64,000 nt of DNA from Amphiscolops sp. MND2022 (lineage: Eukaryota): assembly GCA_964187785.1 (NCBI GenBank), contig OZ076417.1, positions 46,934,001-46,998,000 of the forward strand. The letters run 5' to 3'. Of this stretch, positions 11,420 to 62,870 are shown in pieces; the stretch's first letter is position 1, and the number at the start of each line of letters is the position of its first letter. The notes under the pieces are model-generated. The model made no database searches. It was not told the origin of the DNA and worked only from the letters and a program-made list of their open reading frames with translations. A program made the translations under genes and the position numbers.

Positions 11420-11466
11420 AAGACTTATTTTACCGCAAAACCAAAATTTTAACCGATCAACCACCA

Positions 11467-16940: not shown

Positions 16941-17106
16941 ACAGAGAGACGTATTTACCAACAAACTCTAATTACTGTCAATTTATGTTTGTACTACATA
17001 CATACCATTAGTATAGTTTGAGATACCGCTGAATAGTCACTATAAAGATATAGTCTATTTTCTAGCCTACCCATCTGTTTTTACATTAGAGATTGAGAAT
17101 ACAACA
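16886..17106 (+). repeat. 3' LTR of element D
   Basis: Identical copy of 11187-11407, followed by TSD CAGTC. Confidence 0.98.
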
Positions 17107-32153: not shown

Positions 32154-32179
32154 CGAACTAGCAAGATCTTGCTAGTTCG
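32154..32179. repeat. Perfect 26-bp palindrome CGAACTAGCAAGATCTTGCTAGTTCG (copy at 35640-35665)
   Basis: Read directly; lies near the 3' end of a ~430-bp insertion (~31769-32200). Confidence 0.95.
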
Positions 32180-38985: not shown

Positions 38986-40714
38986 TAGGACTTCATCCAG
39001 CAATGCGGGGTATCTGTGACGAAGTTAGTTCTAGCTGTCTCAGCGATTTTGTCAATGGCAGTCTGGTCAGACGTCCTTTTGTAGTGGAGCCCTTCAGCCT
39101 TCAACTTGCTGGCGGTTGCTACCTTGTTGACCATTTTGAGACGAATAAGGAAACCGTCTCATGTATGATCTTTCCTCTGCTGGTCTTGAAGCTCAACAAG
39201 AGGAACCAGGACTTCTCGAGAGGCACGGTTTCAGGAAGGTAGCATGTGAAGGAGTTAGCAAGGGAAATTGGAACACGAAGTGATCTACATTCAGTCGACC
39301 TATTACGCGATTACAACTCAAATATTACTATACTATCGAAAAAATCTTGCCTTGTTGTGGACCACTTGAATCTCCCGGTGACGAGGGTGTGTTGTCAGAT
39401 AGCGCAAGATAGACTTCTAGCGCTTGATCAATTCCCGACAAAGGGCGAGAAGTGTGCGCATTTCCAATCTGCAGGCGATTATGGCCCAAATATGACATTA
39501 TTCAATAGGCATCATTGTTCCTTATCTCCCTCCCTTGACCTTCTTAGACTAAAAATTAACAAACGCGAGTGAGTTTGAGAGACTCGAGAACCCACTCTTC
39601 AGCAAGGGACCCTCCTACTGAGACAATGAGGGCTTGAAGTACAGAAAAGAAATCAATTCTGCGGAACACACTGTAGCTGGGCTTGCGCGTGAGTGCTTGG
39701 AGATCGAGTCGTTCGTATCGGAAGCATTTTTGAACTCCTCGGGAAAACGACAAGCAGTGGTCAATGGTCCGCACGAGGTCCATAGACATCCTGAACTAGC
39801 CACGATATCGGCTTTGGTAGAGACCACTGATAGCAGTCGCGAGAGGGAGCCCATTTCTCGGGAAGCCACCTGCGGCAAACAAAGAACTTGCAGAGGGTAG
39901 CAGTGTTCCAGAAACGCAGGAACTTGAGTCGATTTGTTCCCCTGTCTTCAAACTCAATGGAGAAATACTGTTTGGCTACAACTTGCTCCGCTGTATCCTC
40001 CAATGCGCAGTTGAAAACATGCTGGAGTATTGCCTTAAATGGAAACTTCACAGTCCTCAAATTCCGTTCTCACCGCAAGAAATGAAGTAGCAATTTATAC
40101 TTACCGTTAGTCTCTCTTGGGTCCAATCAAAGTAACAAAAGTTGGCTCGGTGGTTGGGGAACGAACCAACTCATGCCCACAGATCTCGGAGCAGAGAATG
40201 GTCTCCCTGGCTTTGTACAAAGTCCCTAATAAGGCATATCTGAGTCTTAGTGCGTGATTGAGGGGTGCTGCTCCTCGTGAGGAAATCATCGTAGAAATTA
40301 AACCTTTCCCTGATGTCAACAGGTTCTGTGTGGATAAACTTCGGGCGTTCTTCAGCCAGCTCAGTTTTGCTCAAGATCTTCCCGTTCAGGCCCCTGACTC
40401 TATGCTGGATCTTGCCTGTAATTGGATTGACGCTTCTGATTGCTGGACCCTCCTCACACAGTTTCTGACACACTATCTTGACCTTGACTAGTTTCTTCAG
40501 GAATGTCAGCATGACTTCCTAGAGCCTGCTGTTCTGCGAGCCATTGTGTCTCCCTAAGCCGAACCTTTTCTTCTGACTGCATAAGCAGTGTTATCAACAC
40601 TGCTGTCAATGCTGAAAAGGAAATCTCGGGGCTCGGTTTGGACTTGGATGGTTGAGGCTGAGATACTGGCGGGATGATCACATCGGGGAGATTCTGGTGC
40701 TGCGGTTTCCTCAC
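38985..40714 (-). pseudogene. Antisense cargo gene of element B, homologous to the spliced antisense gene of element C
   Basis: Minus-strand blocks align with the C cargo protein (DIRERFNFYDDFL / DLSGEYPFPEDLL; GDHSLLRDLW / GDFNYLRRLW; YFSIEFEDRG..LRFW / YGMHFERSG..VLCW; ELIKR*KSILRY / DLIELWPSIRPY). A GTAAGT...TTTAAG phase-0 intron (40104-40034) sits at the same position as the C intron 50059-50182. Confidence 0.8.
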
Positions 40715-42078
40715 TTGTTAAATTTTTTTAAAGAAAAGGAATTAAATTGCAGCGGTAAGCTTCCTGTGAAAGAATCCATCATGCCGCTTTTGAAATCGTC
40801 CGGATGTAATTTTCAAAATATGACCTGCTATCGCGTGTGTTACGATGGAAACAGGAAGCAATTTTGAACAAGTTGAGCCATAATCAAACTTAAGCTTATT
40901 CAAAAGAAAAACATGAAAATCCGGACCATAAATGTTGAGTTGACATCTCAGCAGAGGAAGATGGCAGTGGCTTGAAAGGATAATGAGGGAAGGCACGGAT
41001 GTCCGGTCTTGACAGAAAGTGGATCGACAGCTAAAGTCGTCGACTGAGGCAAAGTAAGTGTGCATGATGGATCGTGAGACAATGATGAGATCAAGATTGA
41101 AAAGGAATATAACAATACTAACAGGGCAATGGTGAAAAAAGAAATTAAACGTTGGAGTTCGTAACTGAAGAATATCACAAGACAACTTTTTTGTTTTGAT
41201 TTTTTACATATTTTAAATGTACACAGACTCTGACAGCGAAATGTACAGTGTAACTTAGTTAGTCCATTCAAGAAATTCTTCGCCCAATTAGGATAATTAC
41301 CGAAGCTTCCACCGCCAAATCGGAATTGCCGGGAAAATTCTAACTCGGCTTGAAACAGAAACAACAAATTCATTCCACTTTCAATTTTAGCCAAGTTCAA
41401 TTGCTCGAGCAGCATCAAAAACTGCGAAGAAACTAATAATGCCGAAATTCAATCTGGCTAGCAATCTAATTGAATTGGATGAAGTGAGCTGACATTCGTT
41501 TCTACATTTCCAGCAACGAAGGAGATTTTTCTGACGACTGGGAGTCAAACTAATCTACCAATTCGGGACAGCTAGTACCCAGGATTAAAAAAGAAGTGGT
41601 TTCTAGCTTCATGTTGTTTGGAGGGAGAGTAATGACGACCAGCAGCATAGAAGAAAAATTGGTCACTGGCCCAAGCTCAGCATAGCCGAGTACGACTATT
41701 ACCCTTAAGTTCGACAACAAATATTTCAACGAAAAACTCGTTACAAAACATCACTGCTGATTGCAGATTCGCCAAAGTATTCCCCTCCCAACGTGAGAGT
41801 GCCATCACAGGACACACCGCTAGTTCAGCCAGTCCAAGCAGAATTCCGAGATTCCTATCATGTCCAGAGCAGTCGACAGTACGAGAACTTGTGAACAAGG
41901 AGGTACACTGGCTGTATGGTATGCGACAAATCGACGGACGCTATACAAAAAGAGAGAACTGACTGGTACATGGAACGATCGACGCCTAGGTTTGAACCTG
42001 AATTCATCATCAAGCTGAGAAGGGAGGCTAATATCGATGGACTCAATGCCGGTGCTTTTCTTTTCCTTGCTTACGCAG

Positions 42079-43808
42079 TATCGCAGGCTGCCGTCCGTTA
42101 CGGATCAAGGATAACTACTTCAGCAATCGGACAAGAAGCCGCAACAGGTACGCTGCGAATATACTAAAACTTTGCCAAGCCTAGAACGAAACTTAATCTA
42201 TCATTTACAAGTACTTATAATATGATTTGATATTTTGTAATTTTTGTCTGTTAACAATTGTTAGATTATTCAGATTGAAATTTGAATTGCTTAGAGCGTT
42301 GGAATGTAAAACAGCTGTATAATTACGATTGCAATGCAAAAGTGAATTACTGCGTAGAAGTACGTAAACGAGTTCAAATGAGCTCCAGTACTTCTACGGC
42401 ATCGAGACTTCCCGGCGAACAAACAACCAATCACAGCTCTTCAAAGATGGACGCAGAAATAATATTCGCCAATCACGGCAACTTGAATGTGCTTTGAAGA
42501 TACTTGATTGTTTCTAGGCAATTGGCCGGTTCCAGTCAGATTCTGTATTGATATCATTCTTCTGCTCATGTTGCTATTACTTCCTTTACTGAGAGCGCAA
42601 TTGTTATTAACGTGATGAAATGCAATGAGGACTTATGTTTGATGTGAAGGTTACTTAGTTCGTCTAATGTTGTACGTACCAGTCCTTGGAGCGGTCCCAG
42701 CTATTATTTGGAACGTGACACAGTGGTAGATAGCCAGATTAGGCTACCACATTAAATAAACCTCTCAAATGTAATTTGAAAATCCCGCTATTCGTATAGC
42801 CTTTTATCTCTCACGCGTCAGCGCGTACCTGAGCTTGATGGTGCATATTTGTAATACCTTTTACTTTTTGTTGACTCTCTGAGAAGTTGTTTTGATTGAT
42901 AGTTATAAGCAATTGGTTTGAAATTACTTTCAAAATGTGATATGCCCATTCAGAGAACCCCCTGTTGCTTTGATGTTCTTTGACGTTGAACGTCAGGTGA
43001 CCTTTCAGGAATGCTATAACCAGAATTCATGTAATTATTCTTCAGATGATATACTTATTAGACAATTGATGATATGTAAAAAAAATGCGAGTTTCATGGC
43101 TTAAGGGGTTTATATACCTCCAACTCCTGGAGCTTGACACAGTTTGCCGAACTAATCAGCGTTCAAGACGCATATTAAAAATTAAATTTCCCATAAAATA
43201 ATTCAAATACCAAAATCGGTCATTCTTCATGCCTGCTACAAAAAAGCAAAAGGGTAAAGCTGAATAATCAAGAGAATGTGATAAGTTATCAGACATTGAA
43301 ACCCAGGACATAATGCTAGGAAGTATTCATCTAGAGAGAGGAGAAGTAAGCGAACTCAACAACTCTGTCCGTAGGCCTGAAAGTCCTAGTTACAATGCAA
43401 TGGTGTATCACGATGTGAATTCTCACTCTAATTCTAGAGAGGATGAGATTAGGGGTTATGCCGGAAACGGCCAGAATTCAAGAGAAGTTGACTTCAGTAG
43501 TGAAACTAATAGGTTGTCTGGGGAACTGAACCAAAGGATCTCTCAAGAAAAGAATGATCTAATGAGTAGTGTGAGCTCATATATTCAGAGAGCCATAAGT
43601 GAGGCTTTAAACGAACAAGTCTTGCCTCACATTAAAGCTACTTTTAGACCCGGACAAGGACAAGTACCTAATAGGAGATGGGGAATCCCGAGCAGAAGAC
43701 CGAAATGTAGATCTGAAGGAGCCCTAAACCGCAAATTCAGAAGCAGTTCGAAAGATGAGCTTCTTTGGGACTTCAATTGAAACGAGGATCTAGAGAATAT
43801 TCTTTACA
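42079..43808 (+). repeat. 3' LTR of element B (~1.73 kb)
   Basis: Homologous to 28552-30190 including TATATA (~43110) and the Gag N-terminal reading frame (ATG ~43229; ORF 43313-43780); followed by TSD TGCAA. Confidence 0.78.
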
Positions 43809-44675: not shown

Positions 44676-45125
44676 TTAATTTACTTTCCAGCTTTTGTTC
44701 GAGGGCTTTCTCGTGAGAGCAAGTGACAATTCCAATACATGCAAGTTGTTACGACTATTCATCGGAGTTGTTTTAGAGTTAGTCGCAGTTTGTGTTTTGA
44801 CTGGGGTAGATGTTCTAGTTGCAGAGATGTTTTCCTGGTCCGAATCGGAATCTTGGATGTTTGAACTAATTGGACGTTTTTTACTCACAGGTGCTATGAG
44901 TTTAAGCATTTCCTTTTGGTTTTCAGCGAGTATTTTTGTCAAGTCAGACATAATCTCTTTCCTTAGAGTTGTCTTTAATTCTTCTAAATTCTCAGGCTCG
45001 AGTCTAGGGTTTTTACTAGAACTAGCTATCAGGTTTCCAGTAGAATTGTTCTCAGTTAAAGAAGCTTCGAAATCTCCTGACACTAACTCAGCTACAGCTT
45101 TCCTCTTCTGGCTTCTGGTAGTCAT
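44676..45125 (-). other. LTR-encoded copy of the Gag N-terminus (126 codons) running 23 codons into flanking DNA
   Basis: MTTRSQKRK...TPMNSR, almost identical to the start of ORF 57846-59324, then diverges at the LTR end. Confidence 0.9.
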
Positions 45126-47006
45126 TTTTTAATGTTAGAAAAAACGTTTCTTCGGCAATAGGTGAATTCTTCGAAGACGATTTTGTTCAACGTTGAAACA
45201 ACGAAACAGTTTAAGTTTATTACAACTTGCAAACTCAACTAACTCACTTTACATGCCTTGTCTAAGTATATATACCTTCTTAGCGTCATTTGTTCCTCAT
45301 CTAAAAATTCCTAGGAATCGCAAAAATCAGGTTTGTTCATCAAAAGACGCTAATGATTCAGATTATTTCAGCTCGGCGTCATAAATTCAGGTATTGAGAT
45401 TCCTAGTTGCGTCACTATTCCGTAAAACCTTGTTGAAATCATTTTTGTTCAGATAACCCATTTCCTGTTTGAACTTCAAAATTGCGGCAAAATAGAAGTC
45501 TAGCTTACATTTTCATCAGCGTAGGCACGCCGGCGTGATCAATTAGTCAGCGTTCAAGTTGGGAAATTGAGATTCGAAGCAAAAGAATGACTCGCAAAAA
45601 TTGTAGCGAAATTGAAACGAGGCAAAAGGAACTTTGGACTAAGGATATTTGAATATTATTGAGGAACAAGCAACGCTAAGAAAAACATAATGATGACTAA
45701 TCAATTAATTTTGTAAACTGAACAACTGCACCAACAGTAAACTCAACTTTGACCTATACGTGGCCATAACGTAACAAGTACGAATTGCAAAGTACAAATA
45801 GATAGGAAAAATACATTTGCAGGCAATAATTATTCTGCACTCGATTGGACTTCGTATATGAATAAATAGAGCAGACATCCCGCAACAATAGCACTTGGTT
45901 TGGGTTTCGACGTTGACCTTACGTTACGTTCTGTGAAACATTTTAATGATAAACAACTAATCACTGAATACATAAAACTCTTAATGTAACGTAAGGTATA
46001 CGTGACTCGAGGAACTATTGTAATAGCATCGTTACTCTTCGATCATTGTTTTAGCCTCTTTTTACAGTACAACCTTTTACATGTGGACTTGTTTCCAGAA
46101 CCCTTTAATTGCGTCGATTCAGAAAAATCCTTATTTGATTTCGGTTTAAACTAATGCTTCATCGCTATTATTTTACGAATTGCTCCGTAAATGCTCCGTA
46201 CGTATTAAGATTGGTTATAGCTGAGCGGCGGAATACAATTTTACAATCCGCTCCGTAAGCGCTCCGTACGTATTAAGATTGGTTATAGCTAAGCAGCAGC
46301 AGCAGGCGGAGCGAAAACGGAGAGCGTAGGTGATACTATTCTCTTTTCTTAGCTAGTGAGCGTTGCTAGAGGCAACCAAGTTTAATTCTACTGGTACCGG
46401 CGCGGATAATTCTGCCAACAAACGACGCTATTGGTCCGTAAAAATAGAAACGCCCGTCACCAGCTTAGTTGAGTGACGCTGTCATAACGTTGTAAACATT
46501 TACTTAAAACCGCTTGGTTGCGGTATTAAGTGGATATTTAACAACTACTTTAATATTGGAATACATTTCCACTATATTTTGTATGTTCTTTCATTTTAGA
46601 TTGTATGGACTCCGTTGGGATCTCGGAGTTGAATATTGTTTTGAATGTTTTTATTTCAGTGTGGAGCAGGAAAAATGATCCCATTTGCAAAATTATTTAG
46701 TATTTAGATTGGAATGGAAAACTCAGAAGATGAAACCGGAAATAAAACGGCGTTGCGTGTGAAAACATTAGACCGGAAGTTTTAGCTAGTTTAAAGTCAT
46801 TTCTGAAAATATTCCGTAACGCTTACGTTAGATTCTGTATTCGGAAAATTATCTGCAATCGATTTAGCTGTACTGTAAGTGGAATTTAGATTAGTTTAAG
46901 ATTAGATTAGTTTAATAGAGTTTACCTCGGCCTTGTCCTCGGCCAATTCCGAAACCAGGTATCCCGCTGCAGCAGCTATAATCCCGACCGGGAGCGGGTC
47001 GTGACA
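44747..47006 (-). repeat. 3' LTR of element C (2260 bp)
   Basis: About 14 substitutions and 1 indel counted by eye versus 58946-61204. Confidence 0.97.
46182..46290. repeat. ~41-bp direct repeat (68-bp period) with CCAAT boxes in the LTR U3; copy at ~60381-60489
   Basis: GCTCCGTAA..GCTCCGTACGTATTAAGATTGGTTATAGCT occurs twice; GATTGG is CCAATC on the element strand. Confidence 0.85.
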
Positions 47007-47781
47007 GGGCCCCCCTTGAAGCAAGAGACAAGGGTATAGCTCGGCAATGGGGGATTTCTTTCCTGATGATGACAGGGGGACGGCCGTTGAAAATCCGCGT
47101 GCCGCGACCACGTCCTCTTCCCGATGTCATTTTGGTTATGAGTCTCTCTTCTTCCTCCATTTCTCGGAGCTCCTGTTCTCTTCGCGCCGACTCAATAGGG
47201 CATATTTCTGGCGGTTTAGTAGGGTCGCTTAACGCACATCTGCATTGCTCTCTTTTGGTCGGAGGGGGGGCATTCTCTTTTGCTCCGTAGTGAGTGCGTC
47301 CACGACTGACTGTTGCGAAGAACTGCCGGTCTTCTATGTCTAAACCATGTAGAGCGTCCAATTCTGCTAGCGAAGGCTCATTCAAGTCATTCAGCTTGAC
47401 TGTATTTGGAGCTTTTTCATTTCCCAGCTGGGGAATGTTTGCCTTTTCTTTTAGAACTGGTGTTGGTTTTGTTTGGGGCTGGCTCGGCGGCGTGTCCGGT
47501 TCTTCGTAGAAGTCGGTATCTGAGTTAGGGTTTACTGCTGGCGGTAGATTAAAGCTTACTCTCCCTAGCTTTTTCTTTTTGCTGGGGGTAGGGCCGCGCC
47601 TTTTCGGAGAACAGTCAGACTCGGACGTTGAATTTGTTTCAGCTTCGCTCCCACGAAATACTTCCGTGGACGAGTCACTAAGAGTGCTGACCGTATTGAG
47701 GGGTAGTGTCTTCAATGGCGTGCTGCAACGGTTATTATCTTCGTCGGAAGATATATCTATCACCAACGAGTATCCGTTCAT
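46912..47781 (-). CDS. ORF3 of element C: 289-aa low-complexity protein of unknown function, reading through the PPT into the 3' LTR
   Basis: Uninterrupted ATG-to-stop ORF; PSKKKK basic cluster, GRVSF, acidic/Pro-rich middle, GRGRGRG and GRGQGRG; the last ~31 codons are LTR-encoded. Confidence 0.7.
   Translation of the reverse strand: MNGYSLVIDISSDEDNNRCSTPLKTLPLNTVSTLSDSSTEVFRGSEAETNSTSESDCSPKRRGPTPSKKKKLGRVSFNLPPAVNPNSDTDFYEEPDTPPSQPQTKPTPVLKEKANIPQLGNEKAPNTVKLNDLNEPSLAELDALHGLDIEDRQFFATVSRGRTHYGAKENAPPPTKREQCRCALSDPTKPPEICPIESARREQELREMEEEERLITKMTSGRGRGRGTRIFNGRPPVIIRKEIPHCRAIPLSLASRGALSRPAPGRDYSCCSGIPGFGIGRGQGRGKLY
47010..47017 (-). promoter_or_regulatory. Polypurine tract of element C
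   Basis: AAGGGGGG followed by CCC and then the LTR TGTCAC on the minus strand. Confidence 0.85.
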
Positions 47782-47833
47782 GATTGCAGAGATTAAATTT
47801 TGTAGGATTTTGGCTTATGTCTTCTTTGACTAG

Positions 47834-48356
47834 GTCACGGAGAATTAGTTTGGCAAAGGATGCTGGTCAAGCTTTTATGAAAATTGGACGACAAATGAAC
47901 GTTTCAAATTCTTTTCCTTCGTAATTTTTAACGAAATTCTATTGGTCGGTTTTTCCGTTTTCGTTCCGGTGCGTCTCGAGTTGAAAGAAACGAGTTCTTT
48001 CTTACTGCGTTGTGATTGGTCGAAATAATTGAGGAAAACTTCTAATTCTAGTAGCCGTCCTCTTTTTGGTTAATGGCGTAATGACGTCACACAATTTCAT
48101 AGGTGAATTACGCCTGTGTTCCGTGATCTCCTGATGATTTTCCTAATTCTTCTTTAGCATTTCTTGGTGGATTTTTATCCATCTCTAGGATCTTTGGAAA
48201 CGTTTTGTTCCGTCAATGCCTTAATAGGCTTTTATTGGGGTTGAAGATTAGGGAATTTCCATTTGTATAGGAGTGATATTGCTAATTTCCTTTCACTTAG
48301 TTACGTCCGCGTAACGTAATTCTACCTCTTTTTGATTTTTCTCCTTTTTTCTTCAG
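47834..48356. promoter_or_regulatory. Putative internal bidirectional promoter between ORF3 (-) and the antisense cargo gene (+)
   Basis: ORF-poor spacer between divergent genes; ATTGGTCG at 47941 and 48015 (inverted CCAAT); TGACGTCA at 48082-48089. Confidence 0.45.
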
Positions 48357-48757
48357 ATTGCTGTGAAAATCTTTGCTGCTGTTTCCTCTCCATGGATGAC
48401 GATACTGCTCCGCCCCAAGGCACTATCACTGGATTTGTCAGTGGCAATGAGACCAACTTTTGTTATACTGACGATGACGTTGTCTTTTCGGAGGTAGGAG
48501 ACGGCTGTTACTTCTTCAGGTTGGTAAAATCTTTCTGACTTTCGTGGGTAATTGGACTGTTGTTTTGGTGATCAGCCTTTTCAGTCTTACCCGAATACCT
48601 GACGCGTCAAACCAGATCTTGATTTTCAGTAACTCAACCTGGCGCTTCAACTGCAGTTGTTTCCGTAGCCACTGCGGGATTTCCTTCGACAGCGACTACT
48701 GTTCTGCCATCAGTTTCCACTTTTTTATCTGCCAAGCCCACTAGTGCTGTTAACGAA

Positions 48758-51700
48758 ATGTTAACTACTGTACTGACTAGTGCTGGGCCCGCCGATTCTC
48801 TTCCTGTGGACTCTTCTCCTGTCATCGTTGGTCCTAATACACGGGTTGTTGCTGCGAGTAGCGATAGTGAGTCTCAAGAAGGTGAGACAGATCCCCCCGT
48901 CAATAGAAAAACCCGTTGGTATATTCGTTTTTGGTATTATGTTTCTGACAGGGTGATCGAAATTGTTTTTGGTGTTGTAGATGTGAGGGATATTGAGACG
49001 CAAGGGCCTTCCAACATATGTGTGACGCCATCGAAACGGGCGAAGAAGGTTGTCATCGCTCCGCCATCGCCTCCTCCTCTGATGCACGCTTCTACCGGAT
49101 GGCAAAGTAAGTTCTGTTATTGTTATTATTTCTTTCTGCATACTTTGAATTGAGGGGAGTATCAGTGTCGAATTGGTTTGGTTTCTTCGAGGACATCTTA
49201 ATTTCGGTATTCTTTTTCATTGGTTGTTGATGTTGTGTAGGTCACGATGATGAGCAGTTATATGGTTCCGGTGGAGTGACGTTAAGTCCCCAGGACGTAA
49301 TGCGATTGGGTCAGCAACTTGTGGAAGAGGTGAAGGAGAGTACTGCGTTGGCGATTCAAACCGGTTAGTGTTCGCGTTTTTCGCTGTAATCGGGTATTGC
49401 TTCTGTTTTTTCCTTAGGGTCGTCGTTCATTTTCAGTGTAGCGTGGATTTTCTTTATCACTTTCCTATGTTGTTTTGTAGAGTTGCAAGAGTTCAGTGGG
49501 AGGGTGGAGAAGCGTCTAGCCAAGCGAACAGTGAAGACGTACGGGAATCGCAACACATTGCATCGTCGTATGTTGAGTCGCCATCCTGCATTTCCTGATT
49601 TCGTGACAGGTTCTACGACCGGTGAGGGAACTCACTTCCACTGTCGGGTATGCAAGCGTGATGTGGCCATGAAAGCTCAGGGCTCTGGAGAATTTAGTAG
49701 ACATTTCCGCTCTGATGCGCACTGGTTTAAAGACGTTACTTATCGCGTCCATATGGGTCTTCAGGTGCTCAATAGATTGATGGAACCGATGGAGTTGTCA
49801 GCAAGTCAACTGGCAGATTATAAGTCGCGGCCATTTTGTGATCTGAGCGGGGAGTATCCGTTCCCTGAAGATCTGCTGCCTAAGCATTCGAAAGCGGAGT
49901 CGAACGTGCCTTACATGACCTTGGTTTCTTGCTTTTGTGAATTCTTGCGGAATGGTGGTGATTTCAATTATCTTCGTCGTCTGTGGGGCCACTTCTGCGC
50001 GACATTGGGCGACCAAGAACCTTGCTTTCCTTTACGATGGAGCCGTTCGGAGACTGTGGTGAGTTTTATTATTGTTGTTACTTGTTTTGTCGTATATCCG
50101 GGTGAGAGAAAAACAAAAAGGGAATAGGGGGGGGTATGTCTGTTGTAGTTATTGAGAAAGTAGGGTTTCTTTTGTGTTTCAGTCCTTCCTTTGTCGGGGA
50201 TTGGCTCGGCGAGTTCTTCGTCTGATGGTGAGTGACGTCAAATCTTTTGAAGAGTACGGGATGCACTTTGAGAGGTCTGGGAACGTGGAACATTGCTATG
50301 TTCTTTGTTGGGATGGGCTCAATTTGAAGAAGATTTGTGTGGGCGGTCAGTCTTTGGATCAAAAGATGCCCGAACCCGAGTTGCTTCCGTTGGCGCGTGT
50401 AGCGAACTGTCTGGAAGGACGACAATTACCGGTGTCAGTTCTCGGCGCTAGTCCTTCGCTCATTCGCGTGCTAGACACGAACAGGACGGATGATCGTCGT
50501 TTTCTGTCATGGCAGTCGTTTGATGAGGAGGTGTTTCTCCAGTGTTTCCGTCAGTCTCATCAGGACATTTTTGGAATGGTTGAGGTGACGACTGCATTGG
50601 AGTATGTGATTCATCGATTGAAAGGGGCTCTCTACGAGGATTGGACAGAAGACAGACCTCTTCTTCGAGCGTGCATACGGGAAGGCTCCGTTGCATTCTG
50701 CAACCTTCGTGAGATCCTGTCCGATTTGATTGAGCTGTGGCCTTCCATCCGTCCATACATTCGTTACACTGGACATCCTCATTTTAAGAGTGTTGCTGAT
50801 AGGGTGAGTACTATCGTATTATTGGTTGATTTCAATTTTGTGTTATTCTTTTGTTCCCCTCTGTGCTTTTCCTGAGCTATATATGATTTTGGAATTAAGG
50901 TATAGTTTATCTATTTTAGCTGCGCGGCACAGACTTTGAGTTAATTTCCGATAGTCTCATCGTCTATCGTTTTGGCTTCCTTCGACTGCTTTTAGACTCC
51001 TGTAAGTACGGTGGTTTTTCGTTAGAATTGTTCTTTTTCGACTGTTTCTGATTGTGGTAGCGTATTGACTGATGTTTCTTGTCATTGTGGGTGTGCCATT
51101 GCATCTGGTTTCTATCGGCTGTGGCGTCTTGATCAAAGTTTTCACTTCTTCACGATAATTCTTGTGTTTAGATTACTTCAATTTTGAGAAATTGCTTCAA
51201 TGCCGGAGAGATTACGCATTTCATGGGTACGGTGAGGTCTGCAACTTCGTCTACTGTCTGCTGATGCGAACCCGTAAGCTGGCTGATTTGCCTGGTATCC
51301 ATGAGTGGGAAAGTTATATGGATGTGTCAAAACTCTCCTCGTTCGACGTCATACCCATGGAAGAATTCTTGATGGACAGTGATTTTGGTCGCGAATTGGT
51401 TGCTGTCAAGACGGGTGAGATGCGGGAATTCCGAGTTAAATGCCGCGAGTGTATCGATCGGCTTGTGTCTCTGATTCTTGCCAGCACAGCTGTGACTTCC
51501 GGTGTTTCGCGTGGGCTTTATGCTTTCTGTCCAGAGATTATGTTGGGAGGCGACGATCACCATATCTTCGAGCTGTTTGGCTCTCTTTGTGATTTATTCA
51601 GGTCCTGCCGCGTGATGTCTTCAGACGGTTTGAATGCTGTTGCTGCTGAATTCAAAAGTTATGTGATAGAGAAACGCAGGCATTACGAGGATGCGACATG

Positions 51701-52436
51701 CGCTGCAAGTGATATTCCTGACTTAGTTCAGTTTCTGCTGCGGGATTTTGCCTTTCAATCTCGGACTCATGTGTTTCGGCTGTTTAAAATATGCTGTCTG
51801 GTAGTTGGATTGCCAGATAGTAGCCTCCCTGCGGTTACTATTGATCTGGGTGGTAGTGCGTTGAGTCCGGCGATGGTTCAGGATTGTGTATTGATGGTGC
51901 AGTCCCACGTTGTCAATCCGAGTTTCAATCCTCGATTATTTTTTTCGGCGTCCTTACTTGTTGCAGTCCGGGAAGCTATTGCAGAGGCAGGTATCTTCTT
52001 CAGAGTTGCTGATTTTGACATGTGGAAGGATTTTTGCTCTGGTGATATGGAGTCTTTCGTTGGGCATTATAGGTCCTTGTATCATAAGTATTTGTTGGGG
52101 CGACGGAAGGATTACGACACTTTCTATGTGGAAAGCAACAAGGCTAATCGGCGTTCCCGCGAGATCCAATATTCAAGTTCGACTGAGGCCGGAAGTGCTG
52201 CGAGTTCTGTCGTCGGTTCTAAGAAGGCGTCATCAAAGATTGCTTCGTCAAAGTCTGTGAAAGCAAATGCGTCTACTGCTCGTTCATCGGCAAAAGATGT
52301 GAACAGGGAAGATGGAGCTGTTGCGAAAAAGAGTGGCGGAGGCAGTACGTCTAGAAGATCAAAGAAGGGTAAGGGCAGTGATTCTGATGATCCTGATGTA
52401 GTCCACAATTTGAAAAGGAGATCTTCTAAGAATTAA
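48758..52436 (+). CDS. Spliced antisense cargo gene of element C (~970 aa): S/T/P-rich N-terminus, C2H2 zinc finger, hAT-transposase-like body, basic Ser-rich tail
   Basis: Exons 48758-48881, 48981-49106, 49241-49363, 49481-50058, 50183-50803, 50920-51001, 51172-52436. Six GT-AG introns of 99, 134, 117, 124, 116 and 170 bp; all phases match, giving a 2919-nt open frame. The 99-bp intron is in-frame and stop-free, so less certain. The true 5' end may lie upstream (acceptor at 48629; ATG at 48392). Confidence 0.85.
49642..49722 (+). other. C-x2-C-x16-H-x5-H zinc finger in the cargo protein
   Basis: CRVCKRDVAMKAQGSGEFSRHFRSDAH. Confidence 0.85.
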
Positions 52437-52894
52437 TGGACAGTTGTTTATGGATTGATTTCCTGATGAATTGTATCTTCTGATGTACCTGTTATTTGTA
52501 TTCTTTGTTTTATGGTCTGATTGATATCTGTAAATCACGCTAGTTGTTTGTTATAGTTACGTAGTTTTAGTAGAGTGCAAAAATTGATGTAGTCATTCCG
52601 GTTCGGTTTGACATGCTGATTCTTTTGTCTAGTCCTGAGTTTGTCGTAGTTCTCCCGTAGTGACTGAGTCGAGCATTCTGAAGTCAGGATTGATGTTAGG
52701 ACGTGGATTAGGTCTCAAATTGTATCGGCCTACTTTCCTAGGATTATATCCAACGACTATAGGCGGTAGTTCGGGTGTTTTGGGAGGGCTTCCTATAGGC
52801 GGCGGTGCAAAAATATAGGGGTTGTCGCTGACGTCCAAGTTAAATGACGTTATATTGTCGGAGGAAGTTTTATCTTCTGCCGTATTTTCATTTG

Positions 52895-53020
52895 TGGCTG
52901 TTTGAGCCACGTCATTGGCTGTTATACTTTCGCTTGTGGTTGTTTGAACCACGTCATTTTCCTCTGTAATTTCATTTGTGGTTGTTTTAACCACATCATT
53001 TTCCGTTGTAATTTCGTCGC
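52895..53020. repeat. Three ~42-bp (14-aa) tandem units in the integrase C-terminal tail
   Basis: ITTENDVVKTTTNE / ITEENDVVQTTTSE / SITANDVAQT. Confidence 0.75.
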
Positions 53021-56000
53021 GTCCTGTTGTGTCTGTGATTTCTGTAACTGTGGCTTCTTCTGCGGCGTTTTCGGTGTTGTTTCCGAACAGAACTTCTCCG
53101 AATTCAGTTTCCCAAGCTTGCGCGTACCAATTATTGTGGGTTGTTTTAACCTCTGGGTCTGGAAGGTAATCTTCCCTTCTGACTGTTACGTCAGGTACTC
53201 GTTGATTGGGCGCATATAGCCTTAGGCGAATTCTATGGAGGGTTTGAGTATACCTAGTTCCCGTGCGACGTACGACGTAGTTGTTGTTCGAGAGTTTTTG
53301 ACTACTATGTAGGGTCCAGTCCAAATGCAATCTTTAAAGGCAAATTTCATTGACTGATTGTCTGCTTTCGGATTGAGGACGTAGCAGTAATCGTTGACTT
53401 TGAGCGGTGTAGCCGATGCTTTCTTGTCATAGTATTGTTTGTATTTGAGGTAAGAGTGCATTAGATTCTCTTTTGCAGCTTGGTGTATTTTGGCTATTTG
53501 CTTCTGTAGTTGGTCCGTTATTTCTTCGTTGTTATCTTTTTCCCAGTTAGGTTTCAATCCAAGTTTTATGTCCAAAATGTTGTACGGAATGCGTCCATGA
53601 AACACTGTTGTCGGTGAACATCCTAGGCTTTCATGGTAGCTTGTGTTGTAATTCATGACTGCAATTTGGACGTATTTGTGCCACATAGAGCGTCTTTCTC
53701 CCGTTGAAATTTTTAGGGAGGTTTTCAAAGAGGCATGAGTCCTTTCTAGAATGCCAATTGTTTGAGCGTGTTTCGTCGATGCGTGGCTTATCCGTATATC
53801 CAGTGTTTGTGTTATTTGATTGACTACTTCTGACCTGAATTGTGATCCTTTATCCGTTAGAATGACGGTCGGCAGGTAGCAGTGTCGTGTCATGACGTCT
53901 ATTATGCATCGTGCGACTGTTTTGGCTGTCATGTCCTGTGTCGGGTAAGCGAAAAGGTAACGCGAAAAAACATCCATCATCGTTATGATGTGTTGGTATC
54001 CATTTGAGGAAGGTAGATTTGGTAGGATGTCTACTTCTAGGCAGTCTTCTGGTCCCATTGTGAATTCAGTGTTGCTTAGCATTTTTGGGCGTATTTGTCT
54101 TGTGTCAATTCTTTTATTGGCAATGCAGTCTTGACAGCTGGTTACCCAAGCTCTGATTTTACGTGCAAGACCTGGGAAGTAGTATTTCGCTCTGCATTCT
54201 TGTATCATTTTTGTGATTCCTGGGTGTTTATTTGTTTTTCCATGTAGAGTGGCCAAGAGTTCTGGGACTAGGTGTTTCGGAATTATAATTTGATTATGGG
54301 TGACTGATCTGTCTTCTCCATAGTATTTCCGCATCAGAACTCCATCTTTCATTATGATTCTTTCTTCGTGGCGTAATAGGTTTCGTCCTCGTGGTTCAGT
54401 TTTGAGAAGGTGTTTGTCATATTTTTCGTGTGAGATCCGTTGTTTCAGTGCTTTGAGGAGAGGGTCTGCATCTTGCTCGTTTCTGATCCGTGCATTTTCC
54501 TTAATTGCACCGAAGGAGTAGACTGCGGAGTTGAGTGGTATCTTGATGACTTCGGTTACCTTTGTTGATAGTTCTTTCTCATGTTCGTCTAGGGCGCGTC
54601 GCTTGCTGAGTGCTTTTCGGGCAAAGATTTCTTGTTCAGATTCATCTTCTTCATCAGGTAGGAAGAAAAGTTGTTCTTCGTCAGCTACATCTGATGATTG
54701 TAGATTGACCTCAATTGGGGACGTTAGGATGTCGTCTCGTAGTTTAAGTTGTACCTTTTCTTTCGGTGTAAGTTCAAGTCTTGAAAGAAAATCTGCTGCT
54801 GTGTTTTGGGAGCCTGCTACGTGCATAATTCGAAACTTGAACTGTAATACATAGTCGCAGGCATTCCAGAGTGCAGGGGGTGTCGTTTTGGTCTGGAAGA
54901 ATCTCGTTACTGAGCGGTTGTCTGTTAAGACCAGGGTTGGAATTGTTGCTTCCCATAGTATGTTGCTGTATTCGAGGAATGCATGGTAGATTGCTAAGAA
55001 TTCCTTGCTGTAGATAGACATTTTCAGTTGTGCAGGTGAAAAAACTCGTGATCCGAACGCTACTGGTGCGAAGGTTTTCCGTTTGGAGAGTATTTTGCGT
55101 TCATCGTTCTCCTCAATCATGAGGGCGTAGCCTGACGCGCGAAAGCTTGCGTCCGTCATTAGAACGTACTGTTTTCCTGCTATAGGCTGTCTGAGTGCGA
55201 GTCCACAAGCTTCCGCTAAACTGGCGTTGATTTCCTTAAAGTTATCGACAAGTTCTTCTGAAATTCTGATCTTGGAGTCTGCTTTAAGAAGTTCGTACAT
55301 GCCGATGAGTTTTTCTGATAAGCGCGGTATGTAGTTGCGGTAATAGTTAACAAAGCCAATGTATTTTTGAACTTGTTTTTTGGATTTGGGGAAGCGGACT
55401 TTGGAGAGGAAATTTTTGACTTTTTGATCTTGCGGGGCTACTCCGTCGGGGGTGATGGTTCGGCCAAGAAATTCGATTTGGGTTACTCCAAAATGACATT
55501 TTTCGATGGTTAGTTATAGTCCTGCTTTTCTAATGCATTTGAAGACTGCTCTGATGTTTTTTATGAGCTGTTCCGTTGTGTTTGCGGCAATGCCAATGTC
55601 ATCTACGTATTGTGCACATTGGTCGGCTTTGATGACTGAGTCCAGATACTCGCGCATGAAGCTCGAAAAAGCTGATAGGGCTCTGCTTAGTCCTTGTGCC
55701 AGGCGACGGTAGGCGAACGTCCTACTAGCAAAATTAAAAGCAAGTAACTCTACTGACCTTTGGTCTGCCATTTGAAGGCAGTGATACGCCTGGGAGCAGT
55801 CAAGCTTGCAGAATAGTTTTTTCCCTGCTAGGTGTTGTGCCGCATCTGAGAGGGTGCTGACAGGGTGGTTGTTGTTGATGTAGTCATCTGCTATGAGTGC
55901 GTTGATTTTGCGTAGATCCACCAGCAGTCTCAGTTTGCCGTTGGGTTTCCGTTGTGCAAATATAGGACTGGCGTACTTGGAGAAGGGGAGTGTCGTGATG

Positions 56001-57869
56001 ATACCGTATCGGTGCATGAGGGCCAGTTCTACAGTCAGATCTTCTTTGAGGTTGATGGGTACGGGTAGGCTTTGCGTGTAGACTGGTTTGTCGTCTTGTG
56101 GTGTTAGGCTGACTTTGAATTGTGTGTTCATTCCTATGTCTAGCCGGTGTCGAGCGAAGATGTCATTAAATTCGACAATGGTGTCCTCAAGGTTCTCACG
56201 GTCTTTGCCCGCAATTAGTGAGTCTGTCCAATTGAACATTGATAGAAATTTGTTGCGAGACTCTTCGTTTTCGGTTGGGTCAAGTTTTTCTAGTTCGGCA
56301 AGGTCTCGCAGTTCTTTCAAGATTCGCTTTTGTATGGGCGAATGTTCTTGTTCGTTGCCTGGGTGTTCTGGGGTCGGAAACCAGAATTTTTCTTCATTGT
56401 CTTCGGGCCGTTCTACTTGCATTAGTGCGTTGATGTACGTGACCACATCGTCATGGTCATTGAGGAGATTCAGGGCGGCAATGTCAACCGGGCGGATCAT
56501 CTTCGTTTCTTCGGGTTTCAGGATTTGCAGTTCAGCCATTTTGGTGTCGGTGGCTATTGTGTATGGGAAATATGTGGTGTTGGCGATTTTAATTGGGAGC
56601 TTTTTATCTCTGGTTGTTGTAATCGCTGGGGCTACTATTACCTTCGCGCATTCGTCGAATTGTGGTAGGGGTTGTATTGTACCCGTTATTGAGTGTTCGG
56701 TACTCACAGGGATTGTTGCGTAGATGATTCGGGTAGAGTGCGCTGGAATTGTGTGTTTGGCTTCGGTCTTTATCATGATGGGCTTGGGATTGCACTTTTG
56801 TCTTTCGTCTGTGAGCGCCATTGTGATTTGGATTTTGGGAAAGTCGATGGTTCCTTGTGCCGTGTCGAGAATTGCGGCATGCTTGCGTAGGAACGCTAAT
56901 CCGATTATGGGAAATGACGTTTGATTCATGATGATGAATGTTTCTTCAAAGGTGTAATCGCCTATTTTGAAACGTAGGGTGTACGTGGCGAGTGGTTGTT
57001 CTAATTCAGCATTGGCATATTGCACTTTGAAAGGGGGTGGGGGTGCTTTATTGACGATGCACTGACTAGCGTGCTGTCGGAGTCTTTCAGCGTCTCTTTC
57101 ACTAATAGCGTTAATGTACGCACCTGAGTCAACTAAGGCGTCGATTTTGACCATGTTGAATTCGACTGGTAGAAAAAGCATTCGTTTTTTCTTCTTGAGG
57201 GCGATGGAAGACATTAACGGAATGTAGTCGTCATCTTTGTCATGTTGAATGAATTCTTTGATGGCATCTAGATCTTCGGGTAATTTTGAGGGACATTCCG
57301 TGATTTCTACGTCGTCATTCATCAGTGTTGTGACGGGCGCAATTTTTGGAGAGGTTACTGGAGGGTCGACATTCTCTCGTGTTGTTCGCCGTTGTTGTGC
57401 TCATATTGTTTTGTCTTCAATGCAGATGATATTTTCGGCATCTATCGGTGTGGAGGTGATGGTGGCGGGTACTGTTGGGGATGGTGTTGTTCGTTTTAAA
57501 ATTGGCGATGGTGGTGATGGTAGGTCCATGATTTCTGTGGATTGAGCTTGGGGGTTTGAGACTTGTATTTTGAAGGAGAGTTTGTTAGTATCATAAATGG
57601 TTGGTTCGTCCCAAGGATCGCATCTGTAGTCTCTATCGTAAATGTAGATACGCTCGGTTTTTGATTCCGGCAAGGGTCTCTTGAGTGTTGCATAGTTATC
57701 CGGTGATTCAGTTATCCATTGGGGTAGTGGCGTTGGATCGTCTGGGTGTCTGGCATTGTGTCGGAGGATCATGCCTACATTCCAACGACGTTGCCAGTCC
57801 TGAGTTGGTTCCTCGTTACACTCTGTGAAAAAGTCTTCCTCATACCTATTTGGGGGGTCTTCGATGGTG

Positions 57870-57925
57870 TACGCCCCCGCGTCTACTTTTTCCCCGAAGC
57901 GTAGGCGCGGCGACTTCAGTTTTTT
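57870..57925 (-). promoter_or_regulatory. Putative -1 programmed ribosomal frameshift signal (A_AAA_AAC at 57925-57919, then TGA and a GC-rich stem)
   Basis: The -1 frame is open from the heptamer into the pol ORF at 57772; downstream CCGCG-C-CTAC can pair with GTAG-A-CGCGG; the same heptamer-plus-stop occurs in element B. Confidence 0.75.
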
Positions 57926-59324
57926 GCTTGGGACGACGTTGTAGGTACGGGTTGTTCGTCAATCTTGTTTGTTGGGATATTGAACTCACGTTTGCGTTTT
58001 CTGGGGTCGTTTGCCGCATTGGCTCCGTCCCAGCAATTTTCGGTTTTGTGCATTTCCCACAAGTATCGCATTTGGGTTTAGTTGTATCTGTTTGTTTGGT
58101 GTCTGTGGTACCTGTTTTTGTGGCGTAGTACCTGTCCTTACGGAGGCGACTGCATTGTGCCTTGTAATGGCCATATTTCCCACAGTGGAAACAGTAACCT
58201 CTCTGTTGTTGTTCTCTCTTATCATCCGCCACTGCTGTGTCCACAGTGTTGAGAGGGACTAGGGTGGTTTCATCGGGCGCTCCTAGTCCGTTGAGGCGCA
58301 TTTCGCGTTCAAGGTGTAAAACAATATCGTTATAGGGTTTGTCTTCTAGGTAAGCTCTATTAAGGATCTTTTTTACGTGATCCGGCATTTTAGCGTATAT
58401 GGCTTTGTAGATGAACTTCTGGGCTTCTGAGCCAAACGCTTCCTTTGCGGTTTTTTGTAACTCATTAGGAAATTCGTGGAGTTTTTGTTTAGTGGGGTCA
58501 AAATGCAGCGCATCCCACTCGCATCTCGCTTTAGCGGATGATTGGAAATCGCCAAAGCGACGTTTGAATGCTGTTATGACTTCTTCTAGGTTGTCTTTTT
58601 TAGTGTCGTCTAGATTACAATACGCTTGTAGCGCGTTTCCTCGTAGGAGTGAATGAAAGTAGTTGATCTTTTGTATCTCGGTTAGGTGAGGGTACATTTT
58701 GATATTGTTTCTAAAGAGGTCCTCGAAAAGTTCGAATTTCTCGGAATTACCGTCAAAGGCTGGAAGCGAAGCTGTCAAAGCTTTCGGCATCGGGGGTAGA
58801 TTGGCAGTTGGGAATGTCTGCGGGTGTGGTGCGAACAGGATCTTAGATGTAGAAGGACGGTCTTTTGTTTGTTCATTGGATGCACGTTGTTGTTTCAATC
58901 TTTTCGTGGGTTGGTTGGTAGAGTCATTGAGGACTCCTGTCACCATGTCACGACTATTCATCGGAGTTGTTTTAGAGTTAGTCGCAGTTTGTGTTTTGAC
59001 TGGGGTAGATGTTCTAGTTGCAGAGATGTTTTCCTGGTCCGAATCGGAATCTTGGATGTTTGAACTAATTGGACGTTTTTTACTCACAGGTGCTATGAGT
59101 TTAAGCATTTCCTTTTGGTTTTCAGCGAGTGTTTTTGTCAAGTCAAACATAATCTCTTTCCTTAAAGTTGTCTTTAATTCTTCTAAATTCTCAGGCTCGA
59201 GTCTAGGGTTTTTACTAGAACTAGCTATCAGGTTTCCAGTAGAATTGTTCTCAGTTAAAGAAGCTTCGAAATCTCCTGACACTAACTCAGCTACAGCTTT
59301 CCTCTTCTGGCTTCTGGTAGTCAT
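57916..59324 (-). CDS. gag: gag of element C, starting inside the 5' LTR; 1-nt frameshift near 58053
   Basis: ATG 59324; reads across the LTR end and PBS (CGT GAC ATG GTG ACA GGA); LPAFDGNSEKFELFEDLF capsid-like region; CFHCGKYGHYKAQC knuckle; restoring one A at 58053-58055 gives a second knuckle CDTCGKMHKTENCW and the stop ...AKN* at 57916. Confidence 0.9.
58933..58945 (-). promoter_or_regulatory. PBS of element C (TGGTGACAGGAGT), probably tRNA-Leu type
   Basis: Directly follows the LTR terminal GACA; from recollection, resembles the tRNA-Leu(CAG) PBS TGGTGTCAGGAGT with one mismatch. Confidence 0.75.
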
Positions 59325-61204
59325 TTTTTAATGTTAGAAAAAACGTTTCTTCGGCAATATGTGAATTCTTCGAAGACGATTTTGTTCAACGTTGAAACAA
59401 CGAAACAGTTTAAGTTTATTACAACTTGCAAACTCAACTAACTAACTTTACATGCCTTGTCTAAGTATATATACCTTCTTGGCGTCATTTGTTCCTCATC
59501 TAAAAATTCCTAGGAATCGCAAAAATCAGGTTTGTTCATCAAAAGACGCTAATGGTTCAGATTATTTCAGCTCGGCGTCATAAATTCAGGTATTGAGATT
59601 CCTAGTTGCGTCACTATTCCGTAAAACCTTGTTGAAATCATTTTTGTTCAGATAACCCATTTCCTGTTTGAACTTCAAAATTGCGGCAAAATAGAAGTCT
59701 AGCTTACATTTTCATCAGCGTAGGCACGCCGGCGTGATCAATTAGTCAGCGTTCAAGTTGGGAAATTGATATTCGAAGCAAAAGAATGACTCGCAAAAAT
59801 TGTAGCGAAATTGAAACGAGGCAAAAGGAACTTTGGACTAAGGATATTTGAATATTATTGAGGAACAAGCAACGCTAAGAAAAACATAATGATGACTAAT
59901 CAATTAATTTTGTAAACTGAACAACTGCACCAACAGTAAACTCAACTTTGACCTATACGTGGCCATAACGTAACAAGTACGAATTGCAAAGTACAAATAG
60001 ATAGGAAAAATACATTTGCAGGCAATAATTATTCTGCACTCGATTGGACTTCGTATATGAATAAATAGAGCAGACATCCCGCAACAATAGCACTTGGTTT
60101 GGGTTTCGACGTTGACCTTACGTTACGTTCTGTGAAACATTTTAATGATAAACAACTAATCACTGAATACATAAAACTCTTAATGTAACGTAAGGTATAC
60201 GTGATTCGAGGAACTATTGTAATAGCATCGTTACTCTTCGATCATTGTTTTAGCCTCTTTTTACAGTACAACCTTTTACATGTGGACTTGATTCCAGAAC
60301 CCTTTAAGTGCGTCGATTCAGAAAAATCCTTATTTGATTTCGGTTTAAACTAATGCTTCATCGCTATTATTTTACGAATTGCTCCGTAAATGCTCCGTAC
60401 GTATTAAGATTGGTTATAGCTGAGCGGCGGAATACAATTTTACAATCCGCTCCGTAAGCGCTCCGTACGTATTAAGATTGGTTATAGCTAAGCAGCAGCA
60501 GCAGGCGGAGCGAAAACGGGAGCGTAGGCGATACTATTCTCTTTTCTTAGCTAGTGAGCGTTGCTAGAGGCAACCAAGTTTAATTCTACTGGTACCGCCG
60601 CGGATAATTCTGCCAACAAACGACGCTATTGGTCCGTAAAAATAGAAACGCCCGTCACCAGCTTAGTTGAGTGACGCTGTCATAACGTTGTAAACATTTA
60701 CTTAAAACCGCTTGGTTGCGGTATTAAGTGGATATTTAACAACTACTTTAATATTGGAATACATTTCCACTATATTTTGTATGTTCTTTCATTTTAGATT
60801 GTATGGACTCCGTTGGGATCTCGGAGTTGAATATTGTTTTGAATGTTTTTATTTCAGTGTGGAGCAGGAAAAATGATCCCATTTGCAAAATTATTTAGTA
60901 TTTAGATTGGAATGGAAAACTCAGAAGATGAAACCGGAAATAAAACGGCGTTGCGTGTGAAAACATTAGACCGGAAGTTTTAGCTAGTTTAAAGTCATTT
61001 CTGAAAATATTCCGTAACGCTTACGTTAGATTCTGTATTCGGAAAATTATCTGCAATCGATTTAGCTGTACTGTAAGTGGAATTTAGATTAGTTTAAGAT
61101 TAGATTAGTTTAATAGAGTTTACCTCGGCCTTGTCCTCGGCCAATTCCGAAACCAGGTATCCCGCTGCAGCAGCTATAATCCCGACCGGGAGCGGGTCGT
61201 GACA
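58946..61204 (-). repeat. 5' LTR of element C (2259 bp): TATA 59466-59473, AATAAA 59415-59420, gag ATG 59324
   Basis: Near-identical to 44747-47006; motif order on the minus strand is TATATATA, AATAAA, ATG, LTR end. Confidence 0.97.
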
Positions 61205-61297
61205 CAAGTGTCTAACAATTTAGAATAGGGGGAACCGATCCCAATTCCCGGAAAACACTAGGAGTAGTAAGCATAATGATCCTCCAAGAAAAAGTTC

Positions 61298-62602: not shown

Positions 62603-62870
62603 CCCGGATCCAAATTCATAAGTCTTCCATGCGATTCCATGCATGGAACCATATGGTTCCAGACAATAATTTCATGCCGTTTCCATGCATGGAATTGCAT
62701 GGAAAAATATGGTTCCATGCACAGATTCGCATGGAACCATATTATTCCATGCGAGTCCATGCATGGAAACGGCATGAAATTATTGTATGGAACCATATGG
62801 TCCCATGCATGGAATCGTATGGAATTATATAATTGTAGGCATGAAATCGGATTGAATCATATGGAAAACG
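62603..62870. repeat. Array of short palindromic CCATGCATGG/TTCCATG repeats, probably the subterminal part of a CCC-ended TIR element
   Basis: Starts CCCGGATCC; many ccatgcatggaa units; no matching right TIR found. Confidence 0.6.

Follow-up and report, generated by a model that had tools for sequence, protein, structure and literature searches.

Structure of the cargo gene and its carrier element

The window, i.e., the whole analyzed stretch of 64,000 nucleotides of contig OZ076417.1 from Amphiscolops sp. MND2022, contains a long terminal repeat (LTR) retrotransposon of 16.5 kb (44747-61204) with gag and pol on the minus strand. Two accessory genes lie in the interval that separates the end of pol from the 3' LTR, head to head and with a spacer of about 600 bp between them: the cargo gene on the plus strand, i.e., antisense, and the open reading frame (ORF) ORF3 in sense orientation. 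The initial annotation had described the region 49642..52050 as the gene of a hAT transposase that had lost its catalytic residues and had been captured by a retrotransposon. Genome searches were made against the host assembly of 1.07 Gb.

The cargo gene consists of eight coding exons (48392-52436, about 1,070 codons). The span noted initially was thus part of a real gene, but the true extent is larger, with four more exons from 48392. The gene and its upstream spacer have the following features:

48392..48519, plus strand: exon 1, holds the start codon, frameshifted in the window copy
48630..48914, plus strand: exon 2, low-complexity region rich in Ser, Thr and Val
48981..49106, plus strand: exon 3, a stretch of basic residues and a run of prolines
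49241..49363, plus strand: exon 4, from the alignment of copies
49481..50058, plus strand: exon 5, encodes a C2H2 zinc finger (C-x2-C-x16-H-x5-H) and a linker, followed by most of a region resembling the DNA-binding domain (DBD) and dimerisation region of Hermes (DBD label assigned by eye)
50183..50803, plus strand: exon 6, helix, three-strand meander and helices, read as RNase-H-like core and start of the insertion domain, with catalytic positions substituted
50920..51001, plus strand: exon 7, 82 nt, found in 37/37 loci with full-length flanking exons
51172..52436, plus strand: exon 8, helical region, a segment resembling the hAT C-terminus without the catalytic-Glu helix motif, about 100 more residues, and a tail rich in Lys, Arg and Ser
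47781..48391, no strand: divergent spacer between ORF3 and cargo, with CCAAT boxes, a CRE-like 8-mer at 48082, and a splice acceptor of the 5' untranslated region (UTR) at 48356

The hAT-type motifs listed in the initial annotation were all present in the plus strand translations, in the order given there. The CxxC..H..H finger starts at 49642 in exon 5, exon 6 contains the strand motifs together with the ELWP segment, the RFGFL segment is in the short exon 7, and the EFKSY and ICCLVVGLP segments are in exon 8. The exon 8 tail contains 23 Lys and Arg and 25 Ser residues per 100 amino acids.

The anatomy of the gene is solid. The GT/AG sites of the core exons 5-8 are preserved among the subfamilies listed, down to about 45-50% protein identity, and the upstream exons 1-4, from 48392, are supported by an alignment of seven copies. 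In addition, a sister branch that has no core introns could be aligned colinearly across all exon junctions, with a mean identity of 26%, and therefore represents an independent check of the spliced gene model. Introns of antisense genes survive reverse transcription according to established splicing logic, and the antisense placement would thus let the cargo introns outlast the RNA intermediate.

The splice acceptor of the 5'-UTR was preserved in 7/7 copies. The CRE-like 8-mer in the spacer was found in 41/48 loci versus 0/48 control segments, and the CCAAT-box pentamer in 48/48 loci versus 36/48 control segments. Because these motifs are conserved, the sequence suggests that the spacer is an internal bidirectional promoter. 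The frameshift in the first coding exon of the window copy was seen in none of 16 other aligned copies, and pol is also interrupted; therefore, the window copy itself may be non-functional.

The carrier is a Ty3/gypsy element. It has two LTRs of 2.26 kb with the ends TG...CA and a mutual identity of 99.3%, a short target-site duplication (TSD), a primer-binding site, and the order gag, protease, reverse transcriptase (RT), RNase H and integrase (Pfam). Its features are:

44747..47006, minus strand: 3' LTR, 2,260 bp, TG...CA, 5-bp TSD at 44742-44746
58946..61204, minus strand: 5' LTR, internally adjoined by a primer-binding site that starts with TGG, TSD at 61205-61209
57846..59327, minus strand: gag, with DUF1759, Retrotrans_gag and a CCHC knuckle (Pfam)
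52629..57958, minus strand: pol, with protease, RT, RNase H, integrase and an acidic tail, stops and frame changes in the window copy (Pfam and ORFs)
46912..47781, minus strand: ORF3, the second accessory ORF, in pol sense, about 290 codons of low complexity, reaching into the LTR edge, conserved in copies
46170..46297, no strand: U3 repeat pair, two 60-bp units 68 bp apart, with a 10-mer common to 31/32 U3 segments

The gag frame starts inside the LTR (58946-59327), and its first 127 codons are therefore duplicated in the 3' LTR (44748-45128). The integrase tail (52629-53333, minus strand) is long, acidic and Thr-rich, contains a 42-bp tandem repeat at 52886-53015, and differs in length among copies. 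ORF3 of the window copy matched no Pfam family. Across copies it has 260-300 codons (e.g., L093:77-871), and part of the intronless branch has a similarly positioned ORF.

Selection, distribution and exchange of the cargo gene

The ratio of nonsynonymous to synonymous substitution rates (dN/dS) of cargo exons 5, 6 and 8 was 0.07-0.19 in the 22 of 28 pairs for which dS could be estimated, versus 0.02-0.14 for the integrase, and the remaining six pairs were saturated. In unsaturated pairs values of 0.11-0.17 were obtained for the cargo. Selection together with conserved splicing rules out chance ORFs on the antisense strand. An env-like role was also ruled out, by the antisense orientation, the zinc finger, and the absence of an env family in the Pfam scan.

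The cargo family is large and old. Genome searches with each query yielded at least 125-126 scored matches, drawn from over 7,000 first-look candidates, and they include subfamilies at 99, 89, 75, 68 and 56% identity, and others. At three sites (C5:67566632-67573396, C3:70053116-70056512 and C11:32276921-32282541) cargo matches were repeated a few kb apart, which suggests that the cassette was duplicated in tandem. With an exon 6 profile, 307 proteins were matched at E <= 0.001, the best 150 of which were listed. One relative, P0141 (890 amino acids), is full-length and has no core introns, and a search that started from it gave 30 more. The intronless branch is present in the host genome, but the identity of P0141 to anything in the assembly is only about 50%, and it is therefore probably derived from another organism or from an unassembled part of the genome. 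A metagenome scan revealed no cargo relative.

The linkage of the cargo to pol was invariant in the loci that were fully inspected. An antisense position beside pol was observed in 20/20 loci, in 12/12 further loci and in 20/20 intronless-type loci, i.e., in 52/52 loci, an arrangement (antisense between pol and 3' LTR) that corresponds to the class aORF-3R. The loci had been picked via their cargo match, and elements without cargo are therefore uncounted. The intronless branch is carried by a related gypsy element with an integrase identity of 54%. A third, more distant and decayed cargo remnant, which consists of four colinear pieces, is present in an older element of the window (about 28548-43611) at 39565-40353 on the minus strand. 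Again, it follows a gypsy pol downstream in antisense orientation, in this case with an RT identity of only 40%. The best score of the pieces was 13.4 bits, whereas none of 12 control stretches exceeded 1.4. This remnant suggests that the capture of the cargo is older than both branches studied. As had been proposed initially, the cargo is a gene of an LTR element and not a nested autonomous transposon; it is conserved and under selection.

The cargo is exchanged as a cassette between near-identical backbones. In a comparison of 32 loci (four loci were dropped because of a short integrase or a missing LTR edge, and the sampling favoured diverse cargo), the identities of U3, ORF3, spacer, tail and integrase were intercorrelated (Spearman 0.55-0.79), whereas the identity of the cargo core correlated with them only at 0.13-0.25. 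Thirteen of the 32 pairs with U3 regions at least 90% identical had cargo cores that were at most 75% identical. The cores of L010/L012 and of L018/L019 were 69% identical, and both flanks were 94-98% identical; the window copy and L073 were 98% identical in the integrase and 94% in U3, but only 61% in the core. ORF3 is exchanged independently of the cargo, exemplified by L020 versus L067/L068, with 96-98% identity for ORF3 and 57% for the core. The trees of the integrase and of exon 8 (21 loci) rejected each other in the approximately unbiased (AU) test, with p values of about 1e-5 and 7e-5 (2,000 replicates, a number that the program warned was low). The total tree length was 4.26 for the cargo and 1.27 for the integrase. 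Because cores that are 57-70% identical sit on near-identical U3/integrase backbones, a strict lock-and-key relationship of one cargo and one LTR is disfavoured.

The overall best reading, to which we assign a probability of about 0.5, is that the cargo protein is a disarmed hAT transposase that acts in trans in the nucleus as a DNA-binding regulator of the element family. A different role of a dead, hAT-derived protein is unlikely, but is the strongest of the alternatives. The protein would be an adaptor that tethers the integrase complex to preferred host DNA, or a decoy that titrates a host silencing factor, and the swapping would represent allele exchange in an arms race with the host. The decoupling of the cargo from its own U3, promoter and integrase (both trees mutually rejected, AU p < 1e-4), its much faster divergence, and the purifying selection on the whole scaffold, beyond the finger, are in line with such a role. 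However, an integrase partner is expected to travel with the integrase, which the cargo does not, and no pair had a dN/dS near or above 1 in the pairwise estimates.

Further repeats are present in the window. A separate gypsy element (11187-17106) has identical 221-bp LTRs, a gag-pol frame of 1,593 codons and an overlapping frame of 294 codons at its 3' end, and a decayed relative of it is found at about 4983-9640. At 29105-36093 a 3.5-kb unit that covers the LTR and gag of the older element is tandemly duplicated, with 96% identity. Near-perfect 200-bp palindromes, which are MITE- or hairpin-like (MITE, miniature inverted-repeat transposable element), are located at 62625-62824 and 2090-2298.

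Probable relationship to hAT transposases

The hAT ancestry of the cargo is likely, but not proven. Weak structural and embedding signals all point to hAT. In the structural search with exon 6, Hermes ranked first among 350,542 chains, with an E-value of 0.063, which is below significance. Hermes was again first in the second-look search, in which positions 130-205 of the model were aligned with Hermes 282-352, a range that includes W319 (PMC4763223; this and the other sources cited here were available in part). The Hermes ranges matched by exons 6 and 8 are colinear, and the exon 8 alignment of 128 residues, which ends at chain residue 566, was the longest among the 50 matches listed. In Atlas, a language-model embedding search, 6 of the 10 matches listed for a full-length intronless relative carry hAT families. 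The finger has the pattern C-x2-C...H-x5-H of an N-terminal hAT zinc finger, and its end spacing equals that of the host hATs L117, L119 and L122-L124. For the DBD/dimerisation region, position and helix pattern fit hAT by eye only, and no profile matched.

Several results weigh against this ancestry. No hAT match reached significance in any sequence, profile or structure search. For exon 8, Hermes had only rank 41 in one search, and neither Hermes nor another hAT was among the matches listed in the exon 8 Foldseek and second-look VIA searches, which gave no significant match; in a wide VIA search of exon 6 Hermes was outside the top 50, and the matches listed likewise included no hAT and nothing significant. 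The structure models are of low confidence (predicted local distance difference test, pLDDT, 53-56), and the Atlas scores of 0.81-0.85 are leads only, with unnamed clusters as the top three matches. Pfam recovered no hAT family, whether for the window exons, for alignments of three exons or for the 21 relatives of full length. Sequence-profile searches of PDB were empty or at chance level. Hidden Markov model (HMM), hhalign and in-house profile-aligner comparisons with host hAT ORFs remained at the null level, with a best z of 2.5 versus 2.0 for an RT control, and positive controls between hAT groups succeeded. The comparison with the group L117/L119/L122-L124 was likewise not significant.

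Further searches were also negative. The C-terminal region PF05699 was found in 0/20 exon 8 members and 0/21 full-length members, and host hAT controls matched. The viral-library Foldseek search of exon 6 gave no hAT among the matches listed and nothing significant, a word-indexed protein search for exon 8 within longer proteins gave no match, and Atlas with exon 8 alone gave a score of 0.75, with an unrelated family. The genome search with DUF4371 gave no match and was uninformative, since the controls were likewise silent. There was no zf-BED Pfam match for the cargo finger; its weak Pfam matches were the non-BED fingers Sgf11, SF3a60 and KIN17 (E 0.03-0.2).

These results leave some room for an origin outside hAT, although we regard it as rather improbable. 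The cargo would then descend from another DDE family with an insertion domain (Mutator, P or Kolobok) or from an unrelated protein of helical structure whose finger is of the U1/matrin type; the likeness of the motifs would be coincidental. The negative sequence-profile tests, the matches to non-BED fingers, and the roughly 100 conserved residues beyond the point where hATs end fit such an origin. In contrast, three methods named hAT, which had been predicted beforehand, no other transposase family was named, the matched Hermes ranges are colinear, and five host hATs have an equal finger. In addition, the host hAT sample is small, and the closest subgroup is possibly missing.

The initial annotation had further stated that the catalytic Asp, CxxH, RW and the Glu of ERxFS are not recognisable. 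They are indeed missing at the hAT-equivalent positions, but the equivalences rest on a register against host hATs that was set by eye, because no hAT search reached significance. In this register the position of the first catalytic Asp (D1) is K, R, Q or H in 19/19 intronless rows, and that of the second (D2) is Gly in 28/33 rows and in 107/124 of a deeper set. At the CxxH equivalents, C is replaced by F or Y and H mostly by E or D; at RW, W is replaced by Phe and R is variable. Both are active-site motifs of hATs (PMC4763223). The helix bearing the catalytic Glu is seemingly shortened. On the other side, the D1 equivalent is Glu in 14/14 rows of the intron branch, in which an Asp close to the E position is also invariant. 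There, either branch shows one acidic residue that never varies, but the two are two columns apart, and no acidic column is common to both. If the register is right, the triad is incomplete in both branches, and, given a hAT origin, it is very probable that catalysis was lost.

The conservation pattern points in the same direction. The histidines of the finger are invariant (33/33 rows), and for each cysteine the count is 32/33. Conservation within the two branches was 0.74 and 0.78 for the finger (0.35 between branches), 0.64 and 0.76 for the DBD-like region (0.42), and 0.56 and 0.44 for the core (0.24). The finger and the DBD-like region are thus better conserved than the core, unlike in an active enzyme, which is expected to conserve its core best. 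As noted initially, no pair of terminal inverted repeats (TIRs) or 8-bp TSD that brackets the cargo was found in the spacers of the window copy; exact inverted repeats of at least 8 nt between the upstream and downstream spacers were absent, only scattered short imperfect inverted pairs occur in 47000-52700, and the sole TSD seen is that of 5 bp around the entire LTR element. A nested autonomous hAT was ruled out by the absent TIRs and the fixed position in 52/52 loci. The cargo fails as a hAT transposon, but its mode of action is plausibly that of a hAT's DNA-binding half.

Proposed function and significance

What is established is how the gene is built, that it is under selection and linked to pol, that cassettes are swapped, and how conservation is distributed; the evolution of the cargo gene is as solid as its anatomy. 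The regulator role preferred here is inferred. The cargo would be transcribed from the internal divergent promoter predicted from the conserved motifs. Its protein would have lost the catalytic set, but the scaffold as a whole would have been retained, along with the zinc finger and the DNA-binding/dimer region. Acting in trans inside the nucleus, this protein would bind DNA sequence-specifically and so regulate the element family. The direction of regulation is probably activating or anti-silencing, i.e., the protein would most likely keep the LTRs or the internal promoter active despite host silencing. It would work through a cis-motif that is common to all subfamilies and readable by the conserved finger; diverged cassettes would be exchangeable between backbones because the motif is common. 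The swapping argues against subfamily-specific targets. A U3 motif is common to 31/32 loci, often within 58- or 68-bp repeats, and overlaps a CCAAT box. This 10-mer may be a candidate target of the cargo, or merely a CCAAT element for a host factor. A further point against the regulator is that the correlation of cargo and U3 identities is weak (Spearman 0.25 versus 0.67 for the integrase), in contrast to VANC and its co-evolving targets; the co-diversification with target repeats that characterizes VANC/TnpA-type regulators was not found for the cargo.

A protein with the opposite effect is less probable still than the two alternatives discussed above. It would keep the copy number low or hold back competing subfamilies or, as a dominant-negative subunit, host hATs, and it may be paired with ORF3. 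The divergent promoter shared by cargo and ORF3, the exchange of both as modules, and the many hATs of the host agree with this, but cargo and ORF3 swap independently (L020 versus L067/L068), and the divergence between the cargo and the sampled host hATs is too great for an obvious partnership. It is very improbable that the protein is still an active nuclease or transposase whose active site has been rearranged, or that the gene is a self-mobilising nested hAT. Acidic residues do occupy two of the three triad positions, or sites close to them, in the intron branch, and the register was set by eye, but the D1 and D2 substitutions, the absent CxxH and RW equivalents, the missing TIRs, the constant position beside pol and the core, which is less conserved than the finger, all speak against it.

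The regulator can be compared to several known systems. With the hAT transposases (Hermes; PDB 8edg, 8sjd) the cargo shares the probable domain order of finger, DNA-binding/dimer region, RNase-H-like core, helical insertion and C-terminal helices, and Hermes, whose BED fingers bind subterminal repeats (PMC10368747), is the best structural match of exon 6. It differs by the lack of DDE, CxxH and RW at equivalent positions, of TIRs, of an 8-bp TSD and of a Pfam hAT match, by 220 extra N-terminal and 200 extra C-terminal residues, and by being encoded by an LTR retrotransposon. Antisense ORFs (aORFs) described in gypsy elements of plants (Retand TRP28/PF04195, Grande gene23, RIRE2) also lie antisense in the stretch from pol to the 3' LTR and occur family-wide; they have their own promoter, a nuclear or DNA-binding role has been proposed for them, no origin is recognised for them, and both reports state that they lack similarity to other transposable elements (TEs) (PMC7264820, PMC11963269). 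In contrast to these, the cargo comprises about 1,070 amino acids, is spliced, and is seemingly a whole transposase scaffold; the TRP28 domain (PF04195) was not matched by Pfam in window ORFs, exon alignments or full-length members.

TE-encoded accessory activators or anti-silencers with sequence specificity are Spm TnpA and VANDAL VANC. Transposases can act as sequence-specific activators, and TnpA is transposase-derived (bioRxiv 10.64898/2026.08.24.746577); VANC proteins oppose silencing via repeats (PMC5735166). However, both serve DNA transposons, TnpA stems from the enzyme of its own element, and VANC co-diversifies with the repeats that it targets, whereas the cargo swaps across near-identical LTRs and its regulator activity is putative. 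The host proteins CGGBP1, ZBED and Kat1 are hAT-derived, DNA-binding and able to evade Pfam (PMC8097297), but they are encoded by single-copy host genes, whereas the cargo is kept by, and multiplied with, another TE. Gypsy elements that carry the PMD domain exemplify cargo common to TE classes, as PMD moves between gypsy and MULE (PMC5418596); PMD is not a transposase core. Extra ORFs are also known from animal LTR elements, i.e., bdelloid ORF3s and planarian Burro (PMC6431247, PMC5408684); in the available text of these reports "hAT" does not occur, and "transposase" does not occur in that of the latter. No published LTR element with a hAT-derived gene turned up in targeted literature searches, whose scope lay outside most subscription journals, Repbase Reports, repeat databases and supplements, where such an annotation may exist. 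The origin and the function of antisense ORFs of LTR retrotransposons have been stated to be unknown (PMC7264820, PMC11963269).

The cargo is an antisense extra ORF with a probable origin, namely a DNA-transposon enzyme. Its family offers many diverged variants under selection, intronless versions suited to direct expression, and a candidate target motif. As a tentative scenario, which is less probable than the regulator role alone, an animal-type gypsy clade would long ago have domesticated and disarmed a whole hAT transposase and turned it into an exchangeable, family-wide anti-silencing or trans-activating factor, with swapping as an arms-race mechanism. If true, this would extend the route from transposase to regulator, so far found in hosts and in the accessory genes of DNA transposons themselves, to capture by a retrotransposon. 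To our knowledge, no retrotransposon-encoded sequence-specific counter-silencing protein is known outside plants, and the cargo could be a first testable candidate.

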